Assembly (NCBI GenBank): GCA_040384565.1
Contig: JAZKJC010000005.1
Coordinates: 12,796 to 76,795, forward strand
Source of the DNA: Patescibacteria group bacterium
Lineage (GTDB): Bacteria > Patescibacteriota > Saccharimonadia > Saccharimonadales > JAZKJC01
DNA length: 64,000 bases
Reading direction: 5' to 3'
Part shown: positions 13,957 to 61,645 of the stretch, in pieces
Position numbering within the stretch: position 1 is the stretch's first letter
Layout of the letters: each line of letters opens with the position of its first letter
The notes under the pieces: model-generated
Database searches by the model: none
Told to the model about the DNA's origin: nothing
The model's input: the letters and a program-made list of their open reading frames with translations, nothing else
Program-made: the position numbers and the translations under genes

Positions 13957-13985
13957 TTAATTATTATAGCACTGGGCTAAGACGT

Positions 13986-16813: not shown

Positions 16814-17319
16814 GCGACAATGAAATATCGGTGGTGGTTGACGAGAATGATAACGTAATTGAATACAAATTGCGTCTGCAGCTATTGCCAACTGAGCGGA
16901 TTAGAATAATCGCAGTATGGATAGAAAATAGTCAAGGACACGTTCTTATTGCTCAACGAGCTTTGAGTATGAAAATGGATCCAGGCTGTTGGGGGCCAGC
17001 TGCAGCTGGGACAGTTGAAAAAGGTCAAAGCTATGAAAATTGTGCTCTGAAAGAACTTGAAGAAGAGCTGGGCATTAAATTTGTCACGCTGAATGCCTTT
17101 CAAAAGCAAATCTATGTGTCGACTCGAGGACACAAACGGGTATGTCAATGGTTCAAGTTGATTTGGGATCATCCAGTCACCGAGCTTAAACTGCATCCGG
17201 ATGAAGTTGAAGCAGCAAAATGGATAGAGAAGAGTGATTTAGCCAGAGAGACACAAGTTAACCCAGACAGTTTTGTTGGCAGTGCGAGTATGTGGCCAGA
17301 ACTATTCAAATTGATTTAG
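16810..17319 (+). CDS. Nudix-family hydrolase (IPP-isomerase-like subtype)
   Basis: GTVEKGQSYENCALKELEEELG box. The start has a 4-nt overlap with the upstream Nudix gene. Confidence 0.65.
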   Translation: MSDNEISVVVDENDNVIEYKLRLQLLPTERIRIIAVWIENSQGHVLIAQRALSMKMDPGCWGPAAAGTVEKGQSYENCALKELEEELGIKFVTLNAFQKQIYVSTRGHKRVCQWFKLIWDHPVTELKLHPDEVEAAKWIEKSDLARETQVNPDSFVGSASMWPELFKLI

Positions 17320-17848
17320 CTTGGCCAAAATCAAGACCGGCGCCGTTGAGTAAGTCGAAGCCTTTTAAGATTGATCGAAACTCTGGATCATCACCTGGAT
17401 TTGCTTGGGTGACATGCTCGGTTGGTATCAACCTGTCGCTGTTGGCCACAACTTCAGCGCGGGTGAACCAGCCTATGGAGGCATGGTCTTCTGGGTTGAA
17501 TTTGATCTGATCCAGCGGGTCGGTAAAACTCGCGAAATATATAACTTCCACGGAGTGAGAGCCCTTGATCAAGTTTTGATATGTAAATGCCGCGAAGGCA
17601 TCACCGACATTGACGTTCATCTCAAACTCTTCGCTGACCTCACGTTTTAGTGCCACGACCAAATCCTCTCCAAAGTCCACATGCCCACCAGGCAGTTCAT
17701 AAATTCCGGGCAAAAACTTTTTGGTCAGAGCTCGCATAGGCAGAAAAACCTTTAAAACCCCATCAAACTTATAATGGATAAACGCGCAGACGCTAATAAC
17801 CTGCTGCCCATGTGCTGGAGTCGCGCTATCATGAATAATCTTCACCAT
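17306..17848 (-). CDS. Nudix hydrolase
   Basis: Nudix box LPGGHVDFGEDLVVALKREVSEEFE. It is convergent with, and overlaps, the 3' end of the previous gene. Confidence 0.75.
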   Translation of the reverse strand: MVKIIHDSATPAHGQQVISVCAFIHYKFDGVLKVFLPMRALTKKFLPGIYELPGGHVDFGEDLVVALKREVSEEFEMNVNVGDAFAAFTYQNLIKGSHSVEVIYFASFTDPLDQIKFNPEDHASIGWFTRAEVVANSDRLIPTEHVTQANPGDDPEFRSILKGFDLLNGAGLDFGQAKSI

Positions 17849-33695: not shown

Positions 33696-34376
33696 ATGCC
33701 CCGCTATTACCGTGAAAGCACATATCACCGGCAAATCCGGTTTATACGAATAATCCGGCGTCTTGTTTTGGTAATAGTGACTATACTATTCGGAATAGGC
33801 GCTTTTATTTCTTACGATACATGGCGTGCATCTAAGCAGGCTAGTCGGCCCAGTGCAACTACCGCTCCATCTAAATCTACTTTTGTTTCGAGCTTGGAAA
33901 TATATCGAACGCAATATTTTCAGTTTCAAGCTAGCAAAACCTGGCGAGCAATTGCTAACGAATCGACGGCGACAAAGTTTATGTACCGTAAGTTCAACTC
34001 TAATCTGGTAGAAGCGCAGCTTGCTATATACGTCAATGAACCAGCAGATAAGAACATTGATGCCAATAGAGTCTTGCCAGTTACTTTCAGTCCTGCCAAT
34101 GATAAGCTCAATGCCTTATTTGTATCCGATCATTGTGGCAAGGATGCTAAAGAAAAAGGCTATAAAATGGTCAAACTTCAAGATGTGACTTTCCGTTGCC
34201 TAACAGACTCGGCTGATTACAGTCTGCTCATTGGTAAAGAGGGCGGCACTACTAAGCTGGAAATGGTTCGTGCTGACGGCACTCTAATAACTTATGTTAT
34301 TCATTTTCGTGATCTCAGAGCAATTGCGGATGCGCAGGATATTGAGGATATAGTTAACAGCTTCCAAGTACGCTGA
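33696..34376 (+). CDS. hypothetical membrane-anchored extracytoplasmic protein
   Basis: 226 aa with a basic N-terminus and one TM helix (LVLVIVTILFGIGAFISY). Confidence 0.55.
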   Translation: MPRYYRESTYHRQIRFIRIIRRLVLVIVTILFGIGAFISYDTWRASKQASRPSATTAPSKSTFVSSLEIYRTQYFQFQASKTWRAIANESTATKFMYRKFNSNLVEAQLAIYVNEPADKNIDANRVLPVTFSPANDKLNALFVSDHCGKDAKEKGYKMVKLQDVTFRCLTDSADYSLLIGKEGGTTKLEMVRADGTLITYVIHFRDLRAIADAQDIEDIVNSFQVR

Positions 34377-34390
34377 GCATTAAATGCTTA

Positions 34391-34399
34391 TGATATAAT
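34391..34399 (+). promoter_or_regulatory. extended -10 box TGaTATAAT, 11 nt before ATG 34411
   Basis: tgatataat is a perfect consensus. Confidence 0.45.
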
Positions 34400-34410
34400 A
34401 TCCTCATAGT

Positions 34411-35181
34411 ATGTTAGTAAGACAAATAAGAAAAATAATAATAGGTTTTGTGCTTGCGGTGTCCATGACTCAGCCCGTTTTTGCTCAATCTTCATCTCCA
34501 AGTTATAAAGTTGAAGAGACTTATTTTGGCAGCGGTGGCGCAGTAGACCTATCCTCTCCTGGCTACCAAGGACAAGCTGGTCTAGGCAGTTTAGGCGTTG
34601 GATCATCCTCAAGCGCTAACTATGATGCTGAAGCTGGATTCTACACTCCGAACCAGGTTTTTCTAGAATTTGTCGTGACTGGAGCTACAGTAGAACTCGG
34701 CGTACTATCCCCGTCCGCGCCATCATCAGGCGCTGCGCAGGCGGGTACCTGCAACTGCTCATTTTATGTCAGAAGCTATCTGTCATCTGCTTATATTGTT
34801 ACCACAATTAGCAATCCGCCAACCAGTGAAAGTGGCCATTCTTTTGCTGCCAAGGCAACGACTGGAGCGCCATCAACTGACTCGACAGTGGAGGAGTTTG
34901 GTATTAACGTAGTTGCTAACACCTCGCCAGTTCTAGGAGCAAATCCGTTCAACGATCCAAGTGGTATGTTTGCAGATGGCACAGCAGCCGCTGGGTACAA
35001 TGTAGCTAACCAATTCAAATATGGCATAGGAGATAATATCGCACGCTCCCCTGCAACCGTTGGTAATCAAGGAACCGGTAAGACTAACTTTACAATTTCC
35101 TACATTATAAAACCCAAAAATACAACCCCAGCAGGTACCTACCGTATGGATCATGTCCTGGTTGCGATACCGACATATTAA
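34411..35181 (+). CDS. secreted fimbrial-subunit-like protein (paralogue 1 of 3)
   Basis: Signal peptide ending VFA-QS. It shares with 37965 and 39290 the internal ...N-Q-(L/V)...(F/V)(C/V)VG...(L/F)G block and a C-terminal G-x-Y...aromatic end (AGTYRMDHVLVAIPTY). Confidence 0.6.
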   Translation: MLVRQIRKIIIGFVLAVSMTQPVFAQSSSPSYKVEETYFGSGGAVDLSSPGYQGQAGLGSLGVGSSSSANYDAEAGFYTPNQVFLEFVVTGATVELGVLSPSAPSSGAAQAGTCNCSFYVRSYLSSAYIVTTISNPPTSESGHSFAAKATTGAPSTDSTVEEFGINVVANTSPVLGANPFNDPSGMFADGTAAAGYNVANQFKYGIGDNIARSPATVGNQGTGKTNFTISYIIKPKNTTPAGTYRMDHVLVAIPTY

Positions 35182-35236
35182 AAAAATTCACGTAAAGATA
35201 TATTTTTGCTATGCTTAAAGCAAAATAAGGTATTTA

Positions 35237-37861
35237 ATGAAAAAGTTAGCAGTGATGATTCGTAGATACCATGCATTTTTATTGATTCTTACCTTGGGTT
35301 TTACAATTCTCCCTTTGACCAAATCAGAAGCTCTTGTTGGCTCAGGCCCCCTTTGGTTAGTAAGTGTAAACAATTCAGGTGTTCAGGGGACTAACCCCAA
35401 TTACGCACCTACAAGTAATATGCCGACAATTAGTGCCGATGGCCGTAATGTTGCATTTTATTCAACCGCACGACTCGTGCCAGAAGACACCAACACATTT
35501 GCTGATGTATATGTTCGTGATGTACAAGCAGGAATAACCAAAAGAGTTAGCATAGCCAGTAATGGAGACCAGGCCGATGGACCAAGTGAAACAGCCGCCA
35601 TTAGCGCAAACGGTCGCTTTGTTGTCCTTAGATCTGATGCGACCAATCTTGTAACAGGTGATACCAACAATCACACAGATTTTTTTGTACATGATTTACA
35701 GACAGCGATTACGACTATTGAGAGTATAAGCACAAGCAGTACCCAAGCAAATAACTCAAGTACTCTAGCTTCTATTAGCGCTGATGGCCGTTACATAGTT
35801 TTTGATTCTTTGGCAAGCAATTTGGTGCCCAATGATACAAATGGACGATCTGATATATTCTTACGCGATCGTCAAAATGGAGTTACTAGTAGAGAAAGTA
35901 TCAATCTATCAGGTAATCAAGCTAATGAAACGAGCTTTGAACCAGAAATTAGCGCTGATGGCCGTTACATAGTTTTTAGTTCGTTTGCTTCTAATTTATT
36001 GGTTGGAAACCAAAATCCTAATGATTCGAATGATGCATACGATATTTTCGTACGCGACCGGCAGACAGGTACGAACAGAAGAGTCAGCGTTGGCAGCAAT
36101 GGTCTACAAGCGAATGGGGGTAGTCAACGTCCACAAATCAACGATTCTGGTACACGGATAGTTTTTGATTCAGACGCAAGAAATCTAGTTCCAGAGAACA
36201 TTCCTCTTCCTTTTGGTTCACAGTATGCCCAGAATGTTTATATGCATGATTTAACAACAAACACCACAAGCCTTTTAAGTAAAAGTATTAATGGTAGTAC
36301 AGGGGGTAACTTTCATAGCAACCAGCCTGCTATTAGTGGGGATGGCGAATTTGTGGTTTTCACATCATCTGCAAATGACTTAGTCTCTGGAGATTCTGGA
36401 ATTATTGGGGAAGGGAGTGGCGATGTTTTTGTTAGAGAGATCGTTACAGACACTACCAAAAGGATAAGTCTTTCAAATAATGGCGAGGAAGGAAACGATA
36501 ACAGCTATTATCCAAGTATAAGTTTTGATGGAAATTATACTGTTTTTGCTTCACAAGCATCAAATTTTGTAACCCCAGATATTAATGGTTACGATATATT
36601 TTTGTACCAGAATTCTATACCTGATACACAACCCCCTATTGTAATGGGTTCCCCAGATCGAGAAGCTAATTCACACAACTGGTATAACGCGGATGTGACG
36701 ATAGATTGGACGGCTATTGACCCTGCGCCAAGCTCCGCCACTCCGACAGACCCACCCAATACAACTGCAAGCACTGAAGGAGCCAATGTTACTTATACTA
36801 GCGGGCAAAGCTGTGATCCTGATAATAACTGTGCTGCGGGCTCGCTAGCTCTATCAATAGACAAAACCGCGCCAACCATTACGGCCACCATAACGTCAGC
36901 GCCAAATAGCAGTGGCTGGAATAAAGACGAAGTGACCGTCACGTTTGCTTGTACCGATTTATTATCTGGGATAGATTTTTGTCCAGCTCCCTTTACGGTT
37001 TCTAACGACACAGCAAGTCAAACAGTCTCCGGTTCTGCAATAGACAAAGCAGGCAATACCGCAAACGCGTCCGTGGTTGTGAAGATAGATAAAACAGTGC
37101 CAACTATAACTGCCTTTGTCGTACCAGCCTCTAATTTAAATGGTTGGAATAACAATGATGTTACGGTGACATTTACGTGTAATGACGTGTTATCTGGGAT
37201 AGATTCGTGTTCCAGCCCCATTACAGTGAGCGGTGAAGCCAACAACCAGGCAATTACAGGAACGGCAGTTGATAACGCCGGAAATATAACAACGATAACA
37301 GTAACACTCAATATTGATAAGACCTTACCGACCATAACAACTGCTGTGACGCCTGCTCCAAATGCTAAAGGCTGGAATAACTCTAATGTTACGATAACAT
37401 TAACATGTTCAGACACTCTATCGGGCGTTGATACATGTAGTGCTCCTATTACTCTAACAAACGAAAGAGATGGACAAGTTGTGTCAGGAACTGCAGTTGA
37501 TAACGCCGGAAACAGCATAAATGTTACCCAAACTATCCGCATTGATAAAACTATCCCAACTGTTGGTGCTATAAGCTTTAATACACCAGGTAATCAGGGA
37601 GTAAAAACCTTGAATCAGACAATTACGGTGTCAGCACTTGCAAATGATGTTCTATCAGGTATAGATGGCGGAGAATACTTTGTAGATGTTGACCCAGGCG
37701 CAGGTAACGGTACGCCTATGACTATATCTGGACTGAATATTACAGGTACAATAGGTACAAACCTTACACCAGGTTCGCATCAGATATATGTTCGTTCTAA
37801 AGATGCAGCTGGCAACTGGAGTATTCTGTCTTCTCGGCGGTTAGTTGTCCTTCCATTCTAA
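35237..37861 (+). CDS. secreted PD40/TolB-like beta-propeller protein with tandem Ig-like domains (putative adhesin)
   Basis: Signal peptide followed by at least 7 repeats of the I-S-(A/G)-D-G-R-(Y/F)-(I/V)-(V/A)-F type, then four ~76-aa IDKT.PTIT...GWN...VT(V/I)TF.C.D.LSG(I/V)D.C units. Confidence 0.7.
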   Translation: MKKLAVMIRRYHAFLLILTLGFTILPLTKSEALVGSGPLWLVSVNNSGVQGTNPNYAPTSNMPTISADGRNVAFYSTARLVPEDTNTFADVYVRDVQAGITKRVSIASNGDQADGPSETAAISANGRFVVLRSDATNLVTGDTNNHTDFFVHDLQTAITTIESISTSSTQANNSSTLASISADGRYIVFDSLASNLVPNDTNGRSDIFLRDRQNGVTSRESINLSGNQANETSFEPEISADGRYIVFSSFASNLLVGNQNPNDSNDAYDIFVRDRQTGTNRRVSVGSNGLQANGGSQRPQINDSGTRIVFDSDARNLVPENIPLPFGSQYAQNVYMHDLTTNTTSLLSKSINGSTGGNFHSNQPAISGDGEFVVFTSSANDLVSGDSGIIGEGSGDVFVREIVTDTTKRISLSNNGEEGNDNSYYPSISFDGNYTVFASQASNFVTPDINGYDIFLYQNSIPDTQPPIVMGSPDREANSHNWYNADVTIDWTAIDPAPSSATPTDPPNTTASTEGANVTYTSGQSCDPDNNCAAGSLALSIDKTAPTITATITSAPNSSGWNKDEVTVTFACTDLLSGIDFCPAPFTVSNDTASQTVSGSAIDKAGNTANASVVVKIDKTVPTITAFVVPASNLNGWNNNDVTVTFTCNDVLSGIDSCSSPITVSGEANNQAITGTAVDNAGNITTITVTLNIDKTLPTITTAVTPAPNAKGWNNSNVTITLTCSDTLSGVDTCSAPITLTNERDGQVVSGTAVDNAGNSINVTQTIRIDKTIPTVGAISFNTPGNQGVKTLNQTITVSALANDVLSGIDGGEYFVDVDPGAGNGTPMTISGLNITGTIGTNLTPGSHQIYVRSKDAAGNWSILSSRRLVVLPF
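36857..37540 (+). repeat. three tandem 228-bp coding repeats (Ig-like domain units), with a fourth degenerate unit following
   Basis: Units begin at 36857, 37085, 37313 and 37541, each with the IDKT codons, giving an exact 228-nt period. Confidence 0.85.
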
Positions 37862-37964
37862 ACCTGTGGATAACCGCTTGCTTAGGTAAAATGCTTGTGT
37901 TACATTAGCTCCGTAACTTTCAACATTACAAATAAAAAGTATCAAAACAAAAGGAGATCATAAG

Positions 37965-39236
37965 ATGCAAAGTTTCATAAATATAAAAGATAGAACGGCT
38001 TCGTTGCTTATTGCGACAGTATTAGTTCTATTTAGTGTGCTATTGGCTGTTTTGCCATTTGCAAAAGTATCAGCATACTCAACCCTCAATGAGCGAAAGA
38101 TCCAACTCGGCAGCTCAAAAATAAGTCAAACAGACGTTACATATGACGTAAGTTTCAAACCAACCACAACTGGTAACATCCGCACAATCATTATTGATTT
38201 TTGTGATAGCCCATTGATTGGTACTGTTTGTAACGCGCCAGCTGGCTTTAGCTCAGTCGAGTCAACTTTGATTGTCTCAGACCTCACGGGTCTAGCTGGA
38301 ACTTGGTTAGTTGATCAAACCGAAACAACTACCAATACCATTTTCATTAAAAACGCTACAGGAGGCAGTATAGCTGCAGGTTCAGAAGCTAGCTTCGACC
38401 TTGGTTCAACAGGTGGTACCGATGGTGTTACAAACCCATCTGCAACTGGAACCTTCTATGCTCGCATTCTAACCTATACTACAGATACTGCGGGTGACGC
38501 CTATGATTCTTCGAGTACAGGTGCCAACAACCCTCCTGCCGCTACAGTTGATGCCGGAGGTGTAGCCCTTAGTACTGCTAACCAATTGACCATCAATGCT
38601 ATCGTGCAAGAACAACTACAGTTTTGTGTCGGTACTATAAATGGTGCAGCCCCTGCTGACTGCACAGGCTTAACTGGCAGTACTGTTAACCTTGGTGTTG
38701 TGGACTCAACGGTCAGTAGTATTTCCCCAGTTGCTGCTGCTAGCGGTGGCAACAACTTAAACGGTGCCGCTATGGTGCGAACCAATGCAGCTAATGGCGT
38801 AGTTATTGAATACTTCGCTGAAGTAGCATCAGGCACTAACCATACACGAGCACTACGTGTACCTGGCGCTACTTGTAACGCTGGTGTCGTAGACACTGAC
38901 CAATGTTTTAACTCACCAGATACTCAAATTTCGTTTGCAACCGCAGGCTTCGAAGGCTTCGGGGTTACGTCTACCCTAGATACTAGTAGTGGTAGTACTA
39001 CAAACGTCGTGAGAGACGCGAACTATGACGGTGATGGTACCGCAGCAGTTGGCTTTGCCTGGAGAGAATCAGGTGCATTCGCTACCCTGGCTTCTTCTAC
39101 GGGTGGTGCACAACCTGAAAACCGAGTGGTCGAAGACGAGATGCTTGTCCTAAGATTTGCAGCTCGTGCTGACGCGACAACTCCAACTGGTTCCTACAGT
39201 GTAGTAAGCACATACGTAGCAACCTCATCGTTCTAG
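37965..39236 (+). CDS. secreted fimbrial-subunit-like protein (paralogue 2, probable major subunit)
   Basis: Strong AAGGAG RBS and a signal peptide. The N-terminal block L.ER.I.LGSS...FCDSPL...C.AP.GF is paralogous to 39290. The C-terminus is PTGSYSVVSTYVATSSF. Confidence 0.65.
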   Translation: MQSFINIKDRTASLLIATVLVLFSVLLAVLPFAKVSAYSTLNERKIQLGSSKISQTDVTYDVSFKPTTTGNIRTIIIDFCDSPLIGTVCNAPAGFSSVESTLIVSDLTGLAGTWLVDQTETTTNTIFIKNATGGSIAAGSEASFDLGSTGGTDGVTNPSATGTFYARILTYTTDTAGDAYDSSSTGANNPPAATVDAGGVALSTANQLTINAIVQEQLQFCVGTINGAAPADCTGLTGSTVNLGVVDSTVSSISPVAAASGGNNLNGAAMVRTNAANGVVIEYFAEVASGTNHTRALRVPGATCNAGVVDTDQCFNSPDTQISFATAGFEGFGVTSTLDTSSGSTTNVVRDANYDGDGTAAVGFAWRESGAFATLASSTGGAQPENRVVEDEMLVLRFAARADATTPTGSYSVVSTYVATSSF

Positions 39237-39289
39237 AACTATCAGTTCCAGTTACAATTTAGTCAATAATACCTTAAACTAGAAGACAA

Positions 39290-40330
39290 ATGATAAGGTA
39301 CAAGACATCTCAGTTTAGCTGGTTCATAGCGGTACTAATCCTCGGATTAGTACCGCTAGTTCGCGTATTAGAGGCAGATGCAGCAACTTTACAAAATCGG
39401 TCAATTAGGGCTGAAAGTTCCCAGGTCAATGCCAACACTATACATGTGTTTAATTATAATATTCCAAGCATATCGGTGGTTGGTTCAACGGTCTTTGAGT
39501 ACTGCGCGAATGATCCATTGTTACAAACTCCATGTACGCCTCCGTTAGGCCTAGATGTTTCAGTATCAAACCTTGACTCAGAAGCAGGCGATGTAGGTTA
39601 TAGCATCCACGCCTCAACTACATCTAACCGGCTAATACTAACAAGACTGCCCGTTTTAAGTATTCCAGGGGCGGCTCAGTATGTTTTCAGCAATATTATT
39701 AATCCATCTTCTATTGGAACAGTCTATGTACGTATATCTCTGCACGCAAGTGTTGACGGAACTGGTCCTTATGGCGATGGCGGGGGTGTTGTTTTTAGTA
39801 TTGCCAACCAGTTATCTACACAAGCTTTCGTACCTCCATTTTTAATATTTTGTGTTGGTGTTACTGTGGCCAACGATTGCTCGAGTTCTACTGGCAGCAA
39901 TATAGATTTTGGTGAGTTATCCAGAACTAGCCCGAAGACGGCGACTTCACAATTTGCAGGTGCTACTAATGACGCGACAGGATTCTTTACGAACATAGTC
40001 GCGAATACAATGACCTCAGGCAATCAAGTTATTAATCCACTAATAGTTCCAACTAATAATGCACCAGGTACTAGTCAGTTCGGACTAAATATGCGCGCAA
40101 ATAGCAATCCAAGCGTTGGACAAGATCCAGTAGGTATAGGTAGCTCGACAATTCAGCCAGATTATGCTATTCCAAATCAATTTATTCTGAAAGATGGCGT
40201 AGTAACCAGCTCGCCGTTACCAACAGACTTTAACGCGTTTACAGTTAGTTATTTGGTCAACGTAGCAGCTAATCAAGCCCCAGGTGTCTACAACACAACC
40301 TTAACTTATGTGGCTACCGCTGCTTTCTAA
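39290..40330 (+). CDS. secreted fimbrial-subunit-like protein (paralogue 3)
   Basis: Signal peptide. Blocks LQNRSIRAESS...YCANDPL...C.PPLGL and FSIANQLSTQAFVPPFLIFCVGV...IDFGEL. The C-terminus is PGVYNTTLTYVATAAF. Confidence 0.65.
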   Translation: MIRYKTSQFSWFIAVLILGLVPLVRVLEADAATLQNRSIRAESSQVNANTIHVFNYNIPSISVVGSTVFEYCANDPLLQTPCTPPLGLDVSVSNLDSEAGDVGYSIHASTTSNRLILTRLPVLSIPGAAQYVFSNIINPSSIGTVYVRISLHASVDGTGPYGDGGGVVFSIANQLSTQAFVPPFLIFCVGVTVANDCSSSTGSNIDFGELSRTSPKTATSQFAGATNDATGFFTNIVANTMTSGNQVINPLIVPTNNAPGTSQFGLNMRANSNPSVGQDPVGIGSSTIQPDYAIPNQFILKDGVVTSSPLPTDFNAFTVSYLVNVAANQAPGVYNTTLTYVATAAF

Positions 40331-40416
40331 ACTTCCTATAACATACACGCATTTACAAAAGACACGCCAATGCTTATACTTAGGCCAGAATGTATAAAAA
40401 TTAGCGGAGGTTTCTA

Positions 40417-41397
40417 ATGATACGTCGTAAATTATCAATTTTGTTATGTCTAGCAATTCTTGGCGTTGGTTTGTTGTGGGTGCCAGTAAGGGCCCAACAG
40501 GAAACAGGTGGCAGTGGTTTGCAAATATCACCTACAAAAACTGATATAAGCATTGTTGCTGGCGATCAGCGTGATTTCACTATCGCCGTTAAAAACGTTA
40601 CTCAAGGTGACTTGACGGTAAAGACTTTTATAAATGATTTTGAATCAGATAACATTACCGGCAATCCAAGATTGCTGGCTGACACAACAAAAAGAACGGC
40701 TTATTCACTGGCTGAAATAATAAAAGGGCTCAACGACTTTGAATTAAAAGCCCAAGAGAGCAAAGAAATAAAACTTACTGCTATCGTCCCGGCTAATGCT
40801 TCACCTGGAGCATATTTTAGTGCTGTGCGTTTTACGGCTATTCCTAAAAATCAGGCTTCTGAAGCAACGCAAGATGGCGGACAAGTTGCTCTGACGGCAA
40901 GTCTCGCTCATCTGGTTCTTATTGAAATTCCCGGTGAAATAAATGAACAGATTCAGCTAGAAAGCCTTAAATTCCAAAGTAGTGGCAAGGGTGGATCATT
41001 TTTCTTAAGTAGTCCCGATAAAGCAAACCTAGCTATTAAGAACCTTGGAAACGGTTTCTCGCGTCCATTCGGTAAGGTAACTATCAGTAGATTTGGCAAA
41101 GAGGTGTTTGCGTATGATGTTAACAACACCGATCCAAAAGCTATTGTTCTGCCCAAATCCAGCCGTACGCTCATTAATGACGTAAAGAATATAAAATCTC
41201 CCGGTAAATATACGGCGGTTGCATCAGTTGCTTACGGTAATGGAGCAGAAGTTATTAACCAGGAAGTTTCATTCTGGTATGTACCAGCCTGGTTGATAGC
41301 TTTGATACTGGCAATAATTCTAGCAGTGGTAATTGGTTCGTATCTGATGTATCGCAAGCGTTTTGGCAAGCGTCAGGCTAAAAAGAATCGTCGGTAA
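40417..41397 (+). CDS. two-domain surface protein with C-terminal TM anchor (CscA/DUF916-DUF3324-like, chaperone-like strand pattern)
   Basis: GGAGG RBS and a signal peptide. Blocks LQISPTKTDISIVAGDQRDFTIAVKNVT...TFINDF, PGAYFSAVRF and SPGKYTAVASV. The C-terminal TM helix is followed by YRKRFGKRQAKKNRR. Confidence 0.6.
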   Translation: MIRRKLSILLCLAILGVGLLWVPVRAQQETGGSGLQISPTKTDISIVAGDQRDFTIAVKNVTQGDLTVKTFINDFESDNITGNPRLLADTTKRTAYSLAEIIKGLNDFELKAQESKEIKLTAIVPANASPGAYFSAVRFTAIPKNQASEATQDGGQVALTASLAHLVLIEIPGEINEQIQLESLKFQSSGKGGSFFLSSPDKANLAIKNLGNGFSRPFGKVTISRFGKEVFAYDVNNTDPKAIVLPKSSRTLINDVKNIKSPGKYTAVASVAYGNGAEVINQEVSFWYVPAWLIALILAIILAVVIGSYLMYRKRFGKRQAKKNRR

Positions 41398-41404
41398 GCG
41401 TAGT

Positions 41405-41567
41405 CATACCCATGATAAACCACTTTCCGGCTCTTAGACTCGCCTTTTATAGCCAGAACTTCCCGAAATTTAATAACCGTACTACCGGTACGCTGATAAA
41501 ATTTCAAAAACTTCTGACTCATACAACATCAACCCTAAAAACCGAAAAGCAATTTATCATGGGTATA
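41405..41567 (-). repeat. Family-A long imperfect palindrome, copy A3 (inverted relative to A2)
   Basis: The reverse complement of 41406-41523 is identical to 31839-31956 (118 nt, hand alignment). The remaining arm differs but still pairs through five G:U wobbles on the minus strand. Confidence 0.85.
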
Positions 41568-41598
41568 GCAATCCGAATTAGTTTACGTTTATGCTAAT

Positions 41599-42510
41599 AT
41601 GGGGATAGTAGGAACACCCATGAAACTAAAAAATCTAACTTTGGTAGTAATTACCCCATTAATTACAGTTTTGCTTGCCATCATTTTTGTAAGTATTAGT
41701 TCGAGTGTCTACGCGGCCCAAGATTCGGGATCAATTGGTATAGAAGGCCGTATTTCGGCGCCTCCACCTACTCAAGGCGCTACAATTAGTTTGCCAAGAG
41801 ACGGACAGGCTTTTACCACTGTGCCAATTGACGTTAGCGGTATATGCCCGGTAGGGCTGCTCGTGAAGCTGTTCAAAAATAACATTTTTTCAGGTTCACA
41901 GATGTGTACAAATGGTAGCTTTTCTATAAAGGTTGATCTATTTACTGGTACCAACGAGCTTGTGGCACGCGTCTATGATGCCCTAGATCAACCAGGGCCG
42001 GACTCTAACAAAGTTACAGTGAGTTTTAATGATAATAAACAGGGCGCCGGTTCCCGCGTTTCGCTAACCAGTAACTTTGCCAAAAGAGGTGCTAATCCCG
42101 GGCAGACTCTAACTTGGCCAATAATTTTATCCGGTGGCCAAGGCCCATACGCAATTAGTGTTGATTGGGGGGATGGCAAAGCGCCCGATCTTAAGAGTGT
42201 TGAAAATCCCGGTACGTTTAGTATTGAGCACATATACGATAGCCCGGGCGTATACAACATTATCATCAAGGCAACCGACAAGAACGGGGTAAGCGCTTTC
42301 TTGCAGCTTGTAGGTGTAGCCAACGGAGCCTTAAGCCAGGAAAATGGCACTAAAACTGACGGTGATAATGCCGGAGGGACAAGAACCCGTATAATTTGGC
42401 AGCCCGCGGCAATTTCTATCCCGTTCATCATATCGACGTTTTGGCTGGGCAAGCGCTACGAGCTTAAGATGCTGAAGAGGAAAATAGAACGCGGCGACAG
42501 ACCGTTCTAA
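41599..42510 (+). CDS. PKD-domain surface protein with C-terminal TM anchor
   Basis: Signal anchor and a PKD-like ISVDWGDGKAPD...HIYDSPGVYNIIIKATDKNG. The C-terminal TM helix is followed by a basic tail. An alternative start is ATG 41620. Confidence 0.6.
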   Translation: MGIVGTPMKLKNLTLVVITPLITVLLAIIFVSISSSVYAAQDSGSIGIEGRISAPPPTQGATISLPRDGQAFTTVPIDVSGICPVGLLVKLFKNNIFSGSQMCTNGSFSIKVDLFTGTNELVARVYDALDQPGPDSNKVTVSFNDNKQGAGSRVSLTSNFAKRGANPGQTLTWPIILSGGQGPYAISVDWGDGKAPDLKSVENPGTFSIEHIYDSPGVYNIIIKATDKNGVSAFLQLVGVANGALSQENGTKTDGDNAGGTRTRIIWQPAAISIPFIISTFWLGKRYELKMLKRKIERGDRPF

Positions 42511-55961: not shown

Positions 55962-57410
55962 ATGACCCAAAGCCTGTTTTTCTACGACCTGGAAACTTCC
56001 GGATTTAACCCACGAGAGCAACGGATTATGCAGTTTGCGGGGCAGAGAGTTGATATGCGGTTCAAGCCCTTGGGTGAACCTCATAACTACTTAATCAAGA
56101 TGACTGATGACATACTCCCAGACCCTGATGCTGTATTGATTACAGGGATTACACCACAGGTGACAATTGCGGAGGGCATTACTGAAGTGGCTTTTCTGAA
56201 AATATTTACGGAAGAAATCTCAATACCAGGAACTATTTTTGTGGGCTTCAATAGTATCAGATTTGACGATGAGTTCATGCGTTTTTTGCATTACCGTAAC
56301 TTCTATGACGCCTATGAATGGCATTGGGTGGATGGCCGTGGCCGCTGGGATATGCTGGATGTGGTGCGTATGACCAGAGCGCTTAGGCCTGATGGGATTA
56401 AGTGGCCGGTAGATAGTAAGGGCATTCCAGCAAACCAATTGACCATGCTCACGTCTATAAATGGTCTGGATCACAAAAATGCCCATGATGCGCTTAGTGA
56501 TGTTCAAGCAACCATAGCGTTGGCACAATTGCTTCGTGAGACTCAGCCCAAACTTTTTGACTATCTTCTGGAAATGCGTGATAAGAAAAAGGTAGCAGAA
56601 CTGGCACTTGCCAGAGAACCATTCGTGTATACGAGTGGTAAATATTCAAGTGAACATGAAAAAACAACTGTTGTTGTAACAGTCACTGAGCACCCTAAAA
56701 AAGCTGGCGCTGTTGTCTATGATTTACGCCATGACCCGACACCCTATCTAAATATGAAACCTGAACAGTTGGCTAAAATCTGGCACCATTACTGCAAAGA
56801 TCATCCCTGCAAGCATGACAGGCTGCCAGTAAAAACGCTTCAATTCAATCGTTGCCCGGCTGTGGCTCCACTCGGTGTTTTTAATAATGATAGCCAAAAA
56901 CGTTTGCAGCTGAGTCTTAAGACAGTCCAAAAACACCTTAAGTTACTCAAGCAATCCACTACATTTGCCCAAAATCTGATTAAGACTATCGACTTACTGG
57001 ACAAAGAACAACAGGCCAGGCTTATATACGACGAACTAGACGCGGACGCTAAGCTCTATGATAGTTTTATAGATAACAGTGATAAAGCCGGACTTAAAAA
57101 AGTTAGAGAAGTTGCCCAAGACGATCTGCATAAGCTGAAGCCTGATTTTAAAGATGAGAGGTTAAACGCATTGTTGCCGCTATACAAAGCCCGCAATTTC
57201 CCCAAAGTTTTGCGTGACGACGAGCGTGAAGCCTGGGAGCGTTTCCGTGAAAGGCGTCTATTGGGTGGCAAAAAAGACAGCCGAGCCGCCCGCTTTTTCA
57301 ACCGTCTGGCAGAGCTAGCCGCCAACCCAAAACTTATAGGCCAGCAGCAATATTTGCTAGAAGAGCTGCAACTTTACGGCCAAAGCATCCTCCCCACAGA
57401 ACCCGAATAG
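55962..57410 (+). CDS. sbcB: exodeoxyribonuclease I
   Basis: DEDDh motifs FFYDLETSG, NSIRFDDEF and HDALSDV. The size (482 aa) fits exonuclease I. Confidence 0.85.
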   Translation: MTQSLFFYDLETSGFNPREQRIMQFAGQRVDMRFKPLGEPHNYLIKMTDDILPDPDAVLITGITPQVTIAEGITEVAFLKIFTEEISIPGTIFVGFNSIRFDDEFMRFLHYRNFYDAYEWHWVDGRGRWDMLDVVRMTRALRPDGIKWPVDSKGIPANQLTMLTSINGLDHKNAHDALSDVQATIALAQLLRETQPKLFDYLLEMRDKKKVAELALAREPFVYTSGKYSSEHEKTTVVVTVTEHPKKAGAVVYDLRHDPTPYLNMKPEQLAKIWHHYCKDHPCKHDRLPVKTLQFNRCPAVAPLGVFNNDSQKRLQLSLKTVQKHLKLLKQSTTFAQNLIKTIDLLDKEQQARLIYDELDADAKLYDSFIDNSDKAGLKKVREVAQDDLHKLKPDFKDERLNALLPLYKARNFPKVLRDDEREAWERFRERRLLGGKKDSRAARFFNRLAELAANPKLIGQQQYLLEELQLYGQSILPTEPE

Positions 57411-57414
57411 CAAC

Positions 57415-57461
57415 CTGACTCTACAAGGGCTACATTGCAAGGACGGTTCTTGCAAAGTCAG
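57415..57461. terminator. hairpin between convergent genes (possible bidirectional terminator)
   Basis: Outer stem ctgact/agtcag and inner stem ttgcaag/cttgcaa. There is no strong U tract. Confidence 0.35.
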
Positions 57462-57475
57462 TAAAGGGAAATAGG

Positions 57476-59971
57476 TTAGAGGTCTTTTAGGAGTTTCTGG
57501 AGGTCGTTTACTTGCTGAGGGATAGATTTTCTATCGTCTAGCAGGACTGGTTTGCCGAATTTTATAGTGACTTTGCCGGATCTTGGGAACTGGATGGCAT
57601 CACCTGCCATGATGTTTTCAAAGCCGCTGTGTTTGATAGGGATTATCGGGACTTTCATTTCATTTACAATCCAGCCTATGCCGCTACGAAATGGCTGTAA
57701 CTCCCCGCTTGGGGAATGTTCACCTTCAGGGAAAAATAGAATATGCCATTTTTTATCCAGCAGTTCGCCAGTATAGGCCAAGCTATTCTTAAAACCAGTA
57801 TTTTTTGGGAAAGGGTATGCATTTACCATCACACTGGCGTAGGCATAATAAAAATTCAGCTGCAAGCGGCGCAAAAATTTGTTCTGGGAAAAACTCTGGC
57901 CTTCATTTTCAAAATATTCTTTCCAGGCGGCCGGGGCAATTCTTTGCCTTATACTCCACGGCAGCGACATAATGATGGCCGGGGCGTCAAAGTAACCTAC
58001 GTGGTTAGCAATAAATATAACCGGACCATTCAGATTCTTCAGGTTTTCACGGCCTATTACGCGGCGGCGTACAAACACCCGCAATAAATTATCGGCTAGT
58101 ATGAGGTTAAAGCCACCTCTTATGATGCGTAGAGGCGATGATAGCAACCAACGCCTAAAAATATTGGATTCATGCACCTTAGCCCGTTTTTTGACTATAT
58201 CTTCCAACTCTTTGACGGTGGTTGTGGCGTTGATATCATCTTCTTTGATATCAATGTTGAACTCTTGCTCAATAAACGCCACCAACTCAATGCGGTTCAC
58301 GGATGTAAGATGCAAATCTAAGGCCAATGTAGATGTTGGCTTAACTTCGCTTACGTCAACATCGCAGACTCTGGCAATCAAGCTGTGGAGTTTAGACGCG
58401 CTATCAGCCGGTGGTGGCGTGGATAATTTGGCTTGATTGCCGGTAACTTCTGCCAGTACCAGCGGTTTTTTAATTTTCATGGTTGTTGTGCGTGGAAAAT
58501 CTTCTTTAGCCCATTTTCCATAAGAAGTTATGCGCTGGCTTTCGTTCAGATCCAGGTTGGCAGCAGTTACTACCTTTTTAATATCTAGCTTTGGATCTAG
58601 TGGCAATATTTCGGCGTGGACTTGTTCTCCCTGACTGCTCGGCAAGCCAACTACGCAAACATCGCGTACGCCTTTCTGGCGCATTAGGGCAGTTTCAACA
58701 TCTTCCGGATAAACGTTCATGCCGGCAGCCGTTACTATTACGTCTTTTTTCCGGCCCTTTAAGAATAAGTAGCCATTATTATCTAGGTTACCTATATCAC
58801 CAGTGTTCATCCAGCCTTGTTCGAACAGTTCTTTGGTCTGTTGAGGCTTCTGGAAATAACCCTGGGTGATATTTGTGCCTTTTGCCAGCACTTCACCCAC
58901 TTTATTCAGGCTAAGCTTGACACCAGGAATTGGTTTGCCAACCGACCCAACAACCGATGTTTCGAGGGGGTTTACGGTTAGAACGGGGGAGCATTCAGTC
59001 AGCCCATAGCCTTGTACGATCCTAAACCCCAAACCAAACCAAAACTTTTGTAAATCATCACTTAAGGGCGCGCCACCGCAGATGAAATAACCAAAATGTT
59101 TACCAAATTTTTTATGAACTGGCTTAAATAAAACTTTTTTGAGGCTTCTTGGCGCATTGAGATTAAGGATTTTTTCAAAGGTATGAGTTTTGCCTTTAGC
59201 CTCAACTTCGCGGCGAATGCTGGTTTCAAAAAGTTTTAATAGTCTAGGAACCAACACAATATTGGTAATGCGTTCCTCGGCCAGAACCTTAAATATAAGG
59301 TTAGGCCGTAGCCCCCTCATATACACGACTGTGCAGCCAGCACTCAGCGGTGCTAAAAAGCCTGGGTTTTGTTCAAACAAGTGGCTCATGGGCAGTACTG
59401 ACAAAAATGTCTGGGATGGGCTGACATCAACCACTTTTTTAATGGCTACAACATTACTTATCAGGTTGCCGTGTGTAATGATAACGCCCTTTGGATCACC
59501 GGTGGTGCCGGACGTATAGACGATTTCTAATATATCAGCGGGATTAACAAGAGCGCGTTTTTTGTAAACATCAAGATCCTGAATGTAATGGTTAAGGTGC
59601 TCAATGACAAGATCCTTAACGCCAAGCTTCGGTAAAAGCTTGAATTCGGAATGGAAAATCAGCTTTGCTTTGATCTGCTGCTGAATTTTGCCCACAAAAT
59701 CTCCTGTTGCCAAAAAATCTATGGGAACTACAATAACTCCCTTTAGTGCTGCTGCTAAAAATACCGTTCCCCACTGAGGGCTGTTGTAGCCCCAAATGAT
59801 CAGTTTGTCGCCTTTGCTTAGCCCAGCATTTTCTAAAAGTGTCGCAGTTCGCAGAATATCTTGATGAAACTCCCGGTAGCTATGTTTAAATGTGCGGTAG
59901 CCTGTCTTTTGGACAACTGCTGTTTTGTCCCACTCCTCAAAACTTTTTATGAGGTCAACAACTGTTTTCAT
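57476..59971 (-). CDS. tri-domain acyl-AMP/CoA ligase - carrier protein - lysophospholipid (PlsC-type) acyltransferase fusion
   Basis: The adenylation domain has YTSGTTGDPKGV, GYGLTECSP, TGDIG and KIKK motifs. The carrier-like segment is LALDLHLTSVNRIELVAFIEQEF. The acyltransferase motifs are NHVGYFD (HxxxxD) and FFPEGEHS. Confidence 0.8.
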   Translation of the reverse strand: MKTVVDLIKSFEEWDKTAVVQKTGYRTFKHSYREFHQDILRTATLLENAGLSKGDKLIIWGYNSPQWGTVFLAAALKGVIVVPIDFLATGDFVGKIQQQIKAKLIFHSEFKLLPKLGVKDLVIEHLNHYIQDLDVYKKRALVNPADILEIVYTSGTTGDPKGVIITHGNLISNVVAIKKVVDVSPSQTFLSVLPMSHLFEQNPGFLAPLSAGCTVVYMRGLRPNLIFKVLAEERITNIVLVPRLLKLFETSIRREVEAKGKTHTFEKILNLNAPRSLKKVLFKPVHKKFGKHFGYFICGGAPLSDDLQKFWFGLGFRIVQGYGLTECSPVLTVNPLETSVVGSVGKPIPGVKLSLNKVGEVLAKGTNITQGYFQKPQQTKELFEQGWMNTGDIGNLDNNGYLFLKGRKKDVIVTAAGMNVYPEDVETALMRQKGVRDVCVVGLPSSQGEQVHAEILPLDPKLDIKKVVTAANLDLNESQRITSYGKWAKEDFPRTTTMKIKKPLVLAEVTGNQAKLSTPPPADSASKLHSLIARVCDVDVSEVKPTSTLALDLHLTSVNRIELVAFIEQEFNIDIKEDDINATTTVKELEDIVKKRAKVHESNIFRRWLLSSPLRIIRGGFNLILADNLLRVFVRRRVIGRENLKNLNGPVIFIANHVGYFDAPAIIMSLPWSIRQRIAPAAWKEYFENEGQSFSQNKFLRRLQLNFYYAYASVMVNAYPFPKNTGFKNSLAYTGELLDKKWHILFFPEGEHSPSGELQPFRSGIGWIVNEMKVPIIPIKHSGFENIMAGDAIQFPRSGKVTIKFGKPVLLDDRKSIPQQVNDLQKLLKDL

Positions 59972-60321
59972 ACCTCTAATATTACCATAGCAACCGCGTA
60001 ATTGTGATCGTGGCTAATGCTAACGTCGCATGATTTATACTTTTGCCACTGCGGCGTAACGACAATTTTGGGACGGCCAGATGGCTCATAAGCAATTTGA
60101 ATGTCATGTAGTTTAGGTACCATGCCGAGCGCCTTAAAAAACGCTTCCTTGGCTGCGAGCACTCCGGCTAGGTGCTCCATGCTTACACTAGTTCTTTGGG
60201 AAGTAATCTCCGGATTGGATAGCTCATCGGCATGGAATAACTTTTTTAGCATCAGCTCGTCTTTAAAAAGCTTAATCATATCAGGAATAAATACAATGTC
60301 TGTGCCACAGCGGATTGCCAT
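59968..60321 (-). CDS. acpS: holo-[acyl-carrier-protein] synthase (4'-phosphopantetheinyl transferase)
   Basis: 117 aa. N-terminal GTDIVFI and central EAFFKAL match the AcpS pattern. It has a 4-nt overlap with the downstream fusion gene. Confidence 0.8.
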   Translation of the reverse strand: MAIRCGTDIVFIPDMIKLFKDELMLKKLFHADELSNPEITSQRTSVSMEHLAGVLAAKEAFFKALGMVPKLHDIQIAYEPSGRPKIVVTPQWQKYKSCDVSISHDHNYAVAMVILEV

Positions 60322-60322
60322 A

Positions 60323-61006
60323 TTATTTCCGACCCTTTGATAATTTGCTTAGAATTTCCAAGACCTTTTTTTCAACTGTCTTATCAAAAACAATTTTATG
60401 ATGGCCATTTACCGGGATGATAATATTTTCAGCACCTTTCAGATAGCTTCCGGTTTCATGCCAAATGTGATTATCATACGCGGGAATAATTGAGTAAACA
60501 TGCTTATTAACATGCCCCTGATCATGAAGGTTCGTAATACTCGTGCTTCCGGATGTCATTTCCTTAAATGCTTTGTGAGGCACAATTCCGGCAAGTCTAG
60601 TACCACTAAAAGGCGTGGCGATAGCTATCACGGACTTAATACGTCCATCTTTATTGTAATGTGCAAGTAACTGTTTGCCGATCAAACCACCTTTGCTATG
60701 ACCAACTATAATAACGTTTCTTAAATCCTGTTCTACTATCAACCTGTGTACTAATTCAGCAGAAGTATCTACACTAAGTAAATTCCTACCCAGCCTTTTT
60801 GCTACATAAACCGGATGGCCGACCAACGAGATTTTATTGCCAAGTTGCTTTAAAAAGTGCCATTTTAGGCTGATGCCTGGCAGTAAGATCACGGGTATTT
60901 TATTTTCCTTTGTAAAGCCAAGGTAGTGTTTAGGTACGCTGCGTTTAAACGTCAGTCCTGCTTTTGCGCGGTAAGCATAGTCAACTACCCAATCTTTTAC
61001 AGCCAC
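60323..61006 (-). CDS. alpha/beta-fold hydrolase (lipase/esterase-like)
   Basis: Nucleophile elbow GHSKGG, 227 aa, and a C-terminal H in NGHHKIVF as a possible triad histidine. Confidence 0.7.
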   Translation of the reverse strand: MAVKDWVVDYAYRAKAGLTFKRSVPKHYLGFTKENKIPVILLPGISLKWHFLKQLGNKISLVGHPVYVAKRLGRNLLSVDTSAELVHRLIVEQDLRNVIIVGHSKGGLIGKQLLAHYNKDGRIKSVIAIATPFSGTRLAGIVPHKAFKEMTSGSTSITNLHDQGHVNKHVYSIIPAYDNHIWHETGSYLKGAENIIIPVNGHHKIVFDKTVEKKVLEILSKLSKGRK

Positions 61007-61009
61007 AAC

Positions 61010-61423
61010 CTAACTTCCTTTCATTGATTGTTTTATTCGTTTATAACGGTCGCGATTGCCCAGCAGAAATGTGATGCCAGTGAACACTGCGAACAAACCC
61101 AGGGATATCATCCAGAGTGCACTGTGACGTTGTAGCCAGAAAGCGCCCAGGAGAACTAGTGGTGGTGCGAGAATATCGTAAGCTAACTGAATCTTTGGGT
61201 TTTTGACAAAGATGTAATCACCTAGTTTATCCGCGTGCTTTTTCAGTAAGTCTATGTAACGTTTGGCCCAGGCGTGGTGAACAGCCAGTAACGTCAGACT
61301 CAGAATTAATAGCGGTATTCCACCCGGTCCGGGTAAAGGGCTGGTAAGCGCAGCCAGTATCATAAGTACAACAGCCAGCGCATCAAATATTATAACTTTC
61401 CAAAATCGCATAACACGTCGCAT
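61010..61423 (-). CDS. small PGPGW-type membrane protein
   Basis: 137 aa with about 4 TM helices and an SPLPGPGGIPLL motif. Confidence 0.55.
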   Translation of the reverse strand: MRRVMRFWKVIIFDALAVVLMILAALTSPLPGPGGIPLLILSLTLLAVHHAWAKRYIDLLKKHADKLGDYIFVKNPKIQLAYDILAPPLVLLGAFWLQRHSALWMISLGLFAVFTGITFLLGNRDRYKRIKQSMKGS

Positions 61424-61474
61424 GTAGATAAGTATACGGTACCAGGCAAACTACTGGCATTTTACTCTGTTTTT

Positions 61475-61483
61475 TGGTACAAT
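61475..61483 (+). promoter_or_regulatory. extended -10 box TGgTACAAT directing transcription into A5 and uvrA
   Basis: tggtacaat ends 1 nt before the left end of A5. The predicted start site falls in the A5 terminal repeat. Confidence 0.45.
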
Positions 61484-61484
61484 C

Positions 61485-61645
61485 CATTACCATGATAAAT
61501 TGCTTTTCGGGTTTTCAGGCTTGATGATTTTTGTCCCAGATCTTCCAGAATTTGCGGAGCATATCTGGATATGTGTAGCAAATTATGGAAGATCTGGGAC
61601 AAAAAGGGCAAGTCTGGAAAGCGAAAAGTAGTTTATTATGGGGAT
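61485..61645 (+). repeat. Family-A long imperfect palindrome, copy A5 (divergent interior)
   Basis: The termini cattaccatgataaattgcttttcg / cgaaaagtagtttattatggggat are conserved. The interior tttttgtcccagatcttccagaatttgc / gcaaattatggaagatctgggacaaaaa is unrelated to A1-A4 yet fully self-complementary. Confidence 0.75.

Follow-up and report, generated by a model that had tools for sequence, protein, structure and literature searches.

How members of the Patescibacteria acquire their lipids is still treated as unresolved (PMC7242380, PMC11665869, PMC12281837). It is reported that the group lacks lipid synthesis. In the candidate phyla radiation (CPR) genomes examined by a lipidomics study of 2020, there were no enzymes that produce or require acyl carrier protein (ACP), and CPR cells were enriched in lysolipids (PMC7242380). 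The locus described here raises the question of whether such a cell could rebuild membrane lipids from lysolipids with an acyl carrier of its own. It is a four-gene cluster on the minus strand of a 64,000-nucleotide (nt) stretch of contig JAZKJC010000005.1 (NCBI GenBank assembly GCA_040384565.1, positions 12,796 to 76,795), from a Patescibacteria group bacterium of the Saccharimonadales. The whole stretch is called the window below, and positions are counted from its first letter. Judging from the sequence, the cluster is probably an operon for a self-contained, Aas-like cassette for lysolipid re-acylation and salvage that brings its own acyl carrier.

The cluster runs from 61423 to 57476 and consists of four open reading frames (ORFs). 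Their coordinates and domains were checked by ORF listing and HMMER. In operon order, with lengths in amino acids (aa), the genes are:

61010..61423, minus strand: PGPGW-like membrane protein gene (137 aa), first in the operon
60323..61006, minus strand: alpha/beta serine hydrolase gene (227 aa), with a GTG start preceded by AGGAAG
59968..60321, minus strand: AcpS gene (117 aa), its stop codon overlapping the start of the fusion gene (ATGA)
57476..59971, minus strand: fusion gene (831 aa) encoding adenylation, ACP and PlsC-type acyltransferase domains

The original prediction had described four tightly packed minus-strand genes. All four ORFs lie at the positions it gave, and the junctions (gaps of 3 nt and 1 nt, then an overlap of 4 nt, ATGA) were reproduced exactly. 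HMMER also bore out every domain assignment it had made, the PGPGW score falling just under the Pfam cut-off, and the motifs that it quoted (HLTSVNR, NHVGYFD and GHSKG) translate as it had read them. Chance ORFs are excluded because the ORFs are long, their profile matches are strong and their orthologues are conserved. Exact database entries for operon proteins are annotated as 'MAG: AMP-binding protein' (MAG, metagenome-assembled genome) and 'hypothetical protein V4702_02290'.

The fusion protein is the core of the cluster. It joins three domains in a single chain:

58433..59971, minus strand: ANL fatty-acid-activating domain, aa 1-513 (PF00501, E 9e-67)
58181..58399, minus strand: embedded acyl-carrier domain, aa 525-597 (PF00550, E 2e-9)
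57476..58174, minus strand, stop codon included: PlsC/AGPAT-superfamily acyltransferase domain, aa 600-831 (PF01553, E 2e-14)

In the HMMER alignments, the AMP-binding match spans aa 15-373, with an additional weak match to the C-terminal subdomain; the PP-binding match covers aa 527-591, and the acyltransferase match covers aa 636-780. In the ANL domain, the P-loop reads YTSGTTGDPKG (aa 152-162), and K499 is the A10 lysine. The attachment serine of the carrier is Ser557, in HLTSVNR (nt 58303-58301), and the family consensus around it is DLxL(T/S)S. In the acyltransferase, the HX4D motif is formed by N656-H657 and D662 (NHVGYFD, with His657 at nt 58003-58001), and the FPEG motif includes P748-E749-G750. 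Conservation was assessed in an alignment of 26 family members with 39-72% identity to the window protein. Invariant positions were T153-G162, Y322/G323/E326, T390-G391-D392, R407/K409 and K499 in the adenylation domain, L553, L555 and S557 in the carrier, and N656, H657, D662 and P748-E749-G750 in the acyltransferase. The catalytic motifs of all three domains are thus intact and kept throughout the alignment.

Profile and fold searches place each domain among known families. The carrier is closest to the AcpP-type ACPs of type II fatty-acid synthesis (FASII), which provided its best NCBIfam and PDB profile matches. AcpP is the natural substrate of AcpS. Searched alone, the acyltransferase matches best the acyltransferase segment of the NCBIfam model PRK08633, an Aas-type acyl-[ACP]--phospholipid O-acyltransferase (7.5e-13), ahead of PlsC TIGR00530 (2e-9), and its closest solved relative in the PDB profile search is Thermotoga maritima PlsC (5kym, 2e-17). 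The AlphaFold model of the whole fusion is confident, with a predicted local distance difference test score (pLDDT) of 84.9 and a predicted template modelling score (pTM) of 0.83. In this AlphaFold2 (AF2) model, the linker ahead of the carrier (aa 515-524) is disordered, with pLDDT below 50, and a long Arg-rich amphipathic helix (aa 612-633) precedes the acyltransferase core. The top Foldseek match of the fusion was 3r44, a fatty acyl-CoA synthetase of Mycobacterium tuberculosis; further acyl- and aryl-CoA ligases and adenylation-peptidyl carrier protein (A-PCP) didomains ranked below it. No solved structure spanning all three domains was found by Foldseek against PDB; the matches were ANL enzymes and A-PCP didomains only.

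The gene overlapping the fusion encodes a single ACPS domain of the group I 4'-phosphopantetheinyl transferase (PPTase) type. It scores above the curated cut-offs of PF01648 (36.4 bits, cut-off 25) and TIGR00556 (59.5 bits, cut-off 45.35), and below those of the equivalog models. G6, D8, K58-E59-A60-F61, K63 and S101-I102-x-H104 are invariant across 13 fusion-linked AcpS proteins. We take D8, K58/E59/K63 (AAKEAxxKA) and H104 (SISH) to have the catalytic Mg2+/CoA-binding roles of their counterparts in Bacillus subtilis AcpS.

Conserved gene linkage ties this priming enzyme to the fusion. A set of 95 loci was compared using our own ORF calling, jackhmmer and BLAST. Fourteen of them are from Patescibacteria or DPANN archaea (the window, L001, L002, L005/L006, L007, L008, L045, L057, L064, L073, L083, L094, L095 and L096), and these are low in GC (0.33-0.48 in the 11 measured). 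AcpS lies in the same-strand cluster with the fusion in all 14. It is directly upstream in 12: in 10 of these the two genes overlap by 4 nt, in L095 they overlap by 11 nt, and in L073 they are 4 nt apart. It stands one gene further up in L094 and two genes further up in L064. The higher-GC loci (GC mostly 0.50-0.65) are called diderm-type here because their neighbouring genes encode LolB-like, MlaA and OmpA proteins. AcpS was found near the fusion in none of about 70 of these loci, and their genomes keep housekeeping AcpS and ACP elsewhere. The comparison therefore upholds the earlier suggestion of a priming enzyme that serves the built-in carrier specifically (14/14 against 0/~70).

The second enzyme of the operon is a small hydrolase. 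Its Pfam matches are to Abhydrolase_1 and PGAP1, barely over the cut-offs, and weakly to Palm_thioest. The predicted catalytic triad is Ser104 (in GHSKGG, nt 60697-60695), Asp178 and His202/203; all of these residues, both histidines included, are invariant in 27 family members. The family is compact (about 225 aa) and returned 482 matches. A PDB profile search recovered, as best matches, the Legionella 'putative lipase' RavL (7x2p, 6e-12) and B. subtilis LipA (about 1e-10). The AF2 model (pLDDT 88.9) has as its top Foldseek matches a Streptomyces lipase (5h6g), monoacylglycerol lipases and LipA (1i6w, with a template modelling score of 0.71 normalised to the target); 6nkc was a further lipase match, and Proteus and Burkholderia lipases were also among the relatives found by the profile and fold searches. 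Like RavL and the family I.4 lipase LipA, the window hydrolase has a minimal alpha/beta fold with no lid, a Ser-Asp-His triad and the nucleophile elbow xHSxGG. LipA, however, is secreted and has the family I.4 elbow A-x-S-x-G, whereas the window hydrolase has the elbow G-H-S-K-G, less than 20% identity to LipA and, in the model, an extra N-terminal helix (aa 2-17). No signal peptide or transmembrane segment was seen at its N-terminus on sequence reading. We predict that the protein is a cytoplasmic, minimal, lipase-like alpha/beta serine hydrolase.

Lipolytic genes recur beside the AcpS-fusion pair in other lineages. An ester hydrolase gene is present in 10 of the 14 Patescibacteria/DPANN loci, and at least five unrelated families are represented. 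The LipA-like hydrolase stands beside the pair in the window, L001, L002, L007 and L008. In L057 the order is PF06821 serine hydrolase, AcpS, fusion, patatin-like phospholipase, and the patatin motifs are intact (GGGxKG, GTSAG and DGG). L073 has AcpS, fusion and patatin, and L095 has AcpS, fusion and Hydrolase_4. The Pacearchaeota-like locus L064 (identical or nearly identical to P0063, which is labelled Pacearchaeota) has AcpS, a transmembrane-anchored alpha/beta hydrolase, a major facilitator superfamily (MFS) gene and the fusion, while L094 (Woesearchaeota GCA_043819495, 3462-8304) has AcpS, MFS, fusion and an alpha/beta hydrolase. The presence of at least five unrelated hydrolase families at the same position indicates that the fusion probably works together with lipid deacylation, and these recurrent non-homologous hydrolases are the strongest new argument for such a partnership.

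The genes, their domains, the intact catalytic motifs and the conserved linkage are observed, and they suggest a working scheme, in which we infer the whole chemistry, including which lipid is the acceptor and what the hydrolase acts on. AcpS would move 4'-phosphopantetheine from CoA onto Ser557 of the fusion. The N-terminal ANL domain would adenylate a long-chain fatty acid and then thioesterify the acyl group onto the in-cis arm, and the carrier could swing on its flexible linker toward the PlsC-type domain at the C-terminus, where His657 of HX4D would activate a hydroxyl of a lysolipid at the cytoplasmic face of the membrane, and acyl transfer would yield a diacyl lipid. Acting as a lipase, phospholipase A or lysophospholipase, the LipA-like hydrolase would free fatty acid, lysolipid or both from lipids that the cell has acquired; patatin or other hydrolases would take this role in other loci, and MFS proteins, where present, may import or flip lysolipid. 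In a group generally without fatty-acid synthesis (FAS), the cassette would let the cell salvage and remodel host-derived lipids.

One of the nearest known counterparts is Escherichia coli Aas, a 2-acyl-GPE acyltransferase / acyl-ACP synthetase, which likewise carries an ANL fatty-acid-activating domain and a PlsC-superfamily acyltransferase domain on one chain. The original prediction set the window fusion apart from Aas by its opposite domain order and its built-in carrier, and both differences hold in the BLASTP alignments and Pfam positions. By BLASTP, the AMP-binding domains are 29% identical (E 7e-30) and the acyltransferases 24% identical (E 1e-6), the latter along a stretch up to and through FPEG. 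The alignments place the acyltransferase of Aas at aa 8-141 and its AMP-binding domain at aa 363-623, an order reversed relative to the window fusion, and only the window fusion has a PP-binding domain between the two. Aas has no carrier and uses free ACP, whereas the window fusion has its carrier in cis. The Aas-type PlsC motifs (HX4D and FPEG) and the ANL motifs are present in the fusion and invariant in its family. The operons also differ: the window operon has no transporter but includes AcpS and a lipase-like gene, unlike aas-lplT.

Other bacteria also direct exogenous fatty acids through a phosphopantetheine carrier into phospholipid without CoA. The soluble acyl-ACP synthetase AasS of Vibrio is one example; another is Chlamydia, with AasC and CT775, where the synthetase gene adjoins the lysophospholipid acyltransferase gene (PMC5693948). 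AasS and AasC are separate proteins that work with the housekeeping FASII ACP, whereas in the window the synthetase, carrier and acyltransferase are fused and a dedicated PPTase is encoded beside them. The domain order of the fusion is that of ElbD from Myxococcus xanthus, which is described as a single protein with acyl-CoA synthetase (ACS), ACP and AGPAT-like acyltransferase domains (PMC9131029). That text, citing Lorenzen 2014, reports that ElbD activates fatty acids and loads its ACP in vitro, and that ElbD-like ACS-ACP-AGPAT proteins without the FAR domain were noted in other phyla in 2014; it adds that most non-myxobacterial ElbD homologues also lack FAR (PMC9131029). The architecture is therefore not new: the fusion matches these FAR-less homologues, a likeness drawn from domain order. 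A literature search turned up no account of the cassette in either Patescibacteria or DPANN. What is new is that AcpS is dedicated, that the lipolytic partners are interchangeable and that the system occurs in these two groups.

Several observations weigh against reading the operon as an Aas-like salvage cassette, or narrow that reading. The fusion scores far under the cut-offs of the Aas NCBIfam models (PRK08633, 155 bits against 1221; PRK06814, 145 bits against 1349). Judged by this low score, the reversed order and the inserted carrier, it is not a member of the Aas equivalogs. For ElbD, acyltransferase activity could not be demonstrated in vitro (PMC9131029). The gene order of diderm-type relatives, with an MFS gene after the fusion, resembles the E. 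coli order of aas and then lplT, but the MFS is not an LplT orthologue; LplT was rejected as its identity, with best NCBIfam matches of the ACS/2A0114 type and generic MFS similarity to E. coli LplT. This arrangement, for which we found no earlier description in the literature, nevertheless parallels aas-lplT. A same-strand MFS gene follows the fusion in 41 of 60 diderm-type loci with enough downstream sequence, and within 500 nt in 33.

The evidence on the release step points both ways. Unrelated lipolytic genes recur by the pair, as the original prediction of release, activation, tethering and transfer would have it. The window's own hydrolase family, however, is linked to the pair only in the window's clade (the five loci listed above), and homologues of about 50% identity are unlinked to it in three of three other Patescibacteria-like contigs. 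The hydrolase would also be unable to attack host lipids outside the cell because it has no signal peptide. No hydrolase adjoins the pair in L005, L083 and L096, and L045 is truncated downstream of the fusion, too early to show whether one follows. Same-strand genes flank the unlinked LipA-like hydrolases in L090 (6001-7539) and L091 (5206-7673); they encode proteins of 256-321 aa that match no Pfam family, and these neighbours may be alternative partners of the hydrolase.

The first gene of the operon fares less well as part of a conserved system. The PGPGW protein scores 20.9 bits with PF09656 (cut-off 23.3) and E 1.4e-5 with TIGR02611, and its orthologue in L001 (6566-6985) passes the PF09656 cut-off with 38.6 bits. 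On sequence reading, the window protein appears to have four hydrophobic helices, the first and second of them joined by a PGPGG turn. The gene adjoins the hydrolase gene only in the window and in its closest relative, L001; in L002 and L008, guaA is upstream of the hydrolase instead. The PGPGW protein is a lineage-specific addition and not a conserved part of the system, and the idea that it is a co-conserved operon member was not sustained. Synteny across related genomes thus gives a divided answer: the AcpS-fusion pair is kept in all 14 loci, whereas the links to the hydrolase and to PGPGW do not extend beyond the window's clade and L001, respectively.

Distribution sets further limits. No FAS genes were found among the window genes scanned, part of the window being annotated by Pfam and the rest read by eye (MetRS, AlaRS, FtsA, TatD and others), and the search of the 64-kb window for ACP-like ORFs yielded the carrier of the fusion itself and no free ACP. 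The fusion is not diagnostic of lipid auxotrophy because its family is common in diderm-type bacteria that make their own fatty acids, Geobacter and Geotalea among them. The view that the fusion as such signals missing fatty-acid synthesis is accordingly weakened. The cassette also appears to be absent from the cultivated Saccharibacterium Southlakia, whose gene tables have no AMP-binding, holo-ACP or phosphopantetheinyl entries, and it is therefore not a general Patescibacteria solution.

Four other explanations of the operon were weighed. The one that survives best is membrane repair or acyl-chain remodelling, a bacterial Lands cycle, as opposed to bulk salvage. The hydrolase or patatin would deacylate the cell's own phospholipids, or phospholipases of a host or competitor would generate lysolipids, and the fusion would re-acylate them. 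E. coli Aas/LplT has such a function, remodelling lysophospholipids and protecting against phospholipase attack (PMC11416262). In FAS-competent diderm-type bacteria (higher-GC metagenome loci L011-L086), the fusion stands beside MFS, and MlaA, LolB-like, OmpA and DUF3943 genes recur nearby (for example L011 3960-5201, L011 5341-6234 and L014 9995-10780), which is a context of envelope homeostasis. A gene for cyclopropane-fatty-acyl-phospholipid synthase (PF02353) at 10156-11310 of L095, 3.5 kb from the cassette, fits remodelling as well and points to a probable further modification of acyl chains in an organism expected to be without FAS. Remodelling leaves the confinement of the dedicated AcpS to Patescibacteria and DPANN unexplained, and we consider it unlikely as the main role; in a cell without FAS, however, salvage and remodelling share their chemistry and are hard to tell apart.

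A different role for the hydrolase is that of an editing or recycling thioesterase for the carrier, similar to type II thioesterases (TEII), in which case the operon would have no release step. Small alpha/beta-hydrolase thioesterases are often kept beside carrier-protein systems, the window hydrolase is cytoplasmic with its weak matches to Palm_thioest, and the PF06821 hydrolase of L057 weakly matches the thioesterase family PF00975 (E 0.0026). The top sequence and fold matches of the window hydrolase are nevertheless true lipases and monoacylglycerol lipases and not TEII, and other lineages have patatin-like phospholipases, which are lipid acyl hydrolases, at the equivalent position. A thioesterase role is for these reasons distinctly improbable.

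The operon could also belong to a specialised lipid pathway like that of ElbD, with dihydroxyacetone phosphate, glycerol 3-phosphate or another non-lysolipid as acceptor, for example in a first step toward ether lipids. The shared ACS-ACP-AGPAT order speaks for this, ElbD being needed for alkyl and vinyl ether lipids according to PMC9131029, as do the FAR-less homologues in other phyla that it mentions. That text, however, describes ElbD with an N-terminal FAR1-like reductase and within the elb operon for ether-lipid and plasmalogen synthesis (PMC9131029), whereas the window fusion has neither the reductase nor elb neighbours. AGPS, FAR and elbB/elbE were not among the conserved neighbour families or Pfam-scanned cluster genes of about 95 loci. 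The acyltransferase is best matched by Aas-type models, and the recurrent neighbours are lipases, patatin and MFS. We regard an ElbD-like pathway as highly unlikely. Finally, small genomes pack unrelated genes and the PGPGW and hydrolase links are not universal, but the idea of a housekeeping acpS and an unrelated hydrolase lying by accident beside an acyl-CoA ligase-like gene in a compact genome is disfavoured to the point of near dismissal, since AcpS-fusion adjacency with overlapping stop and start spans Saccharibacteria, Levybacteria, Sungbacteria-like, Woesearchaeota and Pacearchaeota-like loci whose fusions are just 40-60% identical to the window protein and whose surrounding genes are wholly different.

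An Aas-like cassette for lysolipid re-acylation and salvage therefore remains our preferred reading, and its distribution bears on how it has spread. A profile of the carrier plus acyltransferase retrieved 919 cluster representatives of the fusion family at 50% identity (E <= 1e-30), mostly of 800-850 aa. Named members include Saccharimonadales, Levybacteria, Sungbacteria, Woesearchaeota and Pacearchaeota, and also Geobacter and Geotalea, whose proteins are about 40% identical. The nearest syntenic relative is the uncultured Saccharibacteria MAG L001, whose fusion is 72% identical to that of the window and is likewise flanked by ExoI, Obg and UvrA homologues. In a neighbour-joining (NJ) tree, the window protein falls within a Patescibacteria clade that includes one Woesearchaeota sequence. 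A larger DPANN clade adjoins this clade, and a second, Sungbacteria-like group of Patescibacteria stands beside the diderm-type clade. AcpS linkage appears to track lifestyle and not one single branch.

The DPANN archaea represented by L005, L094 and L064 carry the bacterial-type AcpS and ACS-ACP-acyltransferase cassette. L005 (Woesearchaeota GCA_016192915, 7681-10478) is archaeal by its neighbours, which include an archaeal-type S15 with an S13_N domain, TrmB and S_layer_C. The Woesearchaeota protein P0035 shares 53% identity with that of the window in the alignment (BLASTP gives 55%), and it is nested among Patescibacteria sequences in the NJ tree, therefore suggesting inter-domain transfer and, possibly, fatty-acyl ester lipids in the DPANN organisms that carry the cassette. 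We advance tentatively, as conceivable and still short of probable, that Patescibacteria and DPANN share a horizontally exchanged, self-priming cassette with interchangeable lipolytic enzymes, and sometimes an MFS protein, as a main route from host-derived lysolipids and fatty acids to diacyl membrane lipids of their own.

The boundaries of the operon are set by its flanking genes. uvrA is divergent on the plus strand from about 61571 and extends past the window end, and the exonuclease I gene is convergent (55962-57410, plus strand). Because these two genes bound the cluster, it is a self-contained unit by geometry. The two intergenic regions are:

61424..61570, no strand: divergent intergenic region between the operon and uvrA, the presumed site of the operon promoter
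57411..57475, no strand: spacer of 65 nt between the fusion gene and the exonuclease I gene, which ends the transcription unit by geometry

In the divergent region, a consensus scan alone gave a weak sigma-70-like match (ATGCCA-18-TATACT) ending 8 nt ahead of the first ATG. A 78-nt near-palindrome (61528-61605) has 38-nt arms that are 87% complementary and 2 nt apart, and it reaches into the uvrA start; a copy resembling one arm, with 3 mismatches, is at 10646-10665. Rfam matches to plant miRNAs in the operon region (MIR837, 41 bits) were rejected as spurious, being caused by the palindrome and reflecting no real RNA. In the 65-nt spacer there is just one inverted repeat, weak and AT-rich. The terminator scan called no site there, and its total number of sites equals the shuffle expectation.

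Other genes in and near the window were recorded. A gene for a DedA/VTT-domain membrane protein (L087 4406-5059) lies about 4 kb past uvrA, outside the window (about 64.9-65.6 kb); this family is implicated in lipid flipping, and two ABC exporter-type genes are also nearby. At 10282-12113, a MarR-family regulator gene is followed by a gene for a 443-aa MFS protein (10782-12113). The latter is no closer to LplT than those of the diderm-type loci; what it shares with E. coli LplT and with the diderm-type MFS proteins is only general MFS similarity. Three consecutive genes that look NUDIX-like on sequence reading (158 aa, 169 aa and, on the opposite strand, 180 aa) are at 16337-17848, and a fourth NUDIX gene is at 7320-7829. 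The region 33696-42510 encodes large secreted or surface proteins. One of them, of 874 aa, has repeated segments that resemble beta-propellers and Ig domains; several others, of 300-420 aa, are rich in Ser/Thr/Ala and have N-terminal signal-like helices. The 0.9 kb at 13319-14240 has no long plus-strand gene, and minus-strand ORFs of 73 aa (13541-13320) and 92 aa (13956-13678) are present there.

Identification of this cassette offers a concrete candidate for how ultrasmall Patescibacteria, and some DPANN archaea, make membranes from scavenged lipids. It names testable residues and genes (Ser557, His657, hydrolase Ser104 and AcpS) and substrates (fatty acid, ATP and lysolipids). Members of the widespread fusion family have no annotation beyond 'AMP-binding protein' or 'long-chain acyl-CoA synthetase'; they are probably analogues of Aas whose carrier is built in, and this view also bears on the use of exogenous fatty acids in ordinary bacteria such as Geobacter. 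If it is true that Patescibacteria and DPANN share the cassette as a main route, it would mean bacterial-type fatty-acyl ester lipids in archaeal cells.

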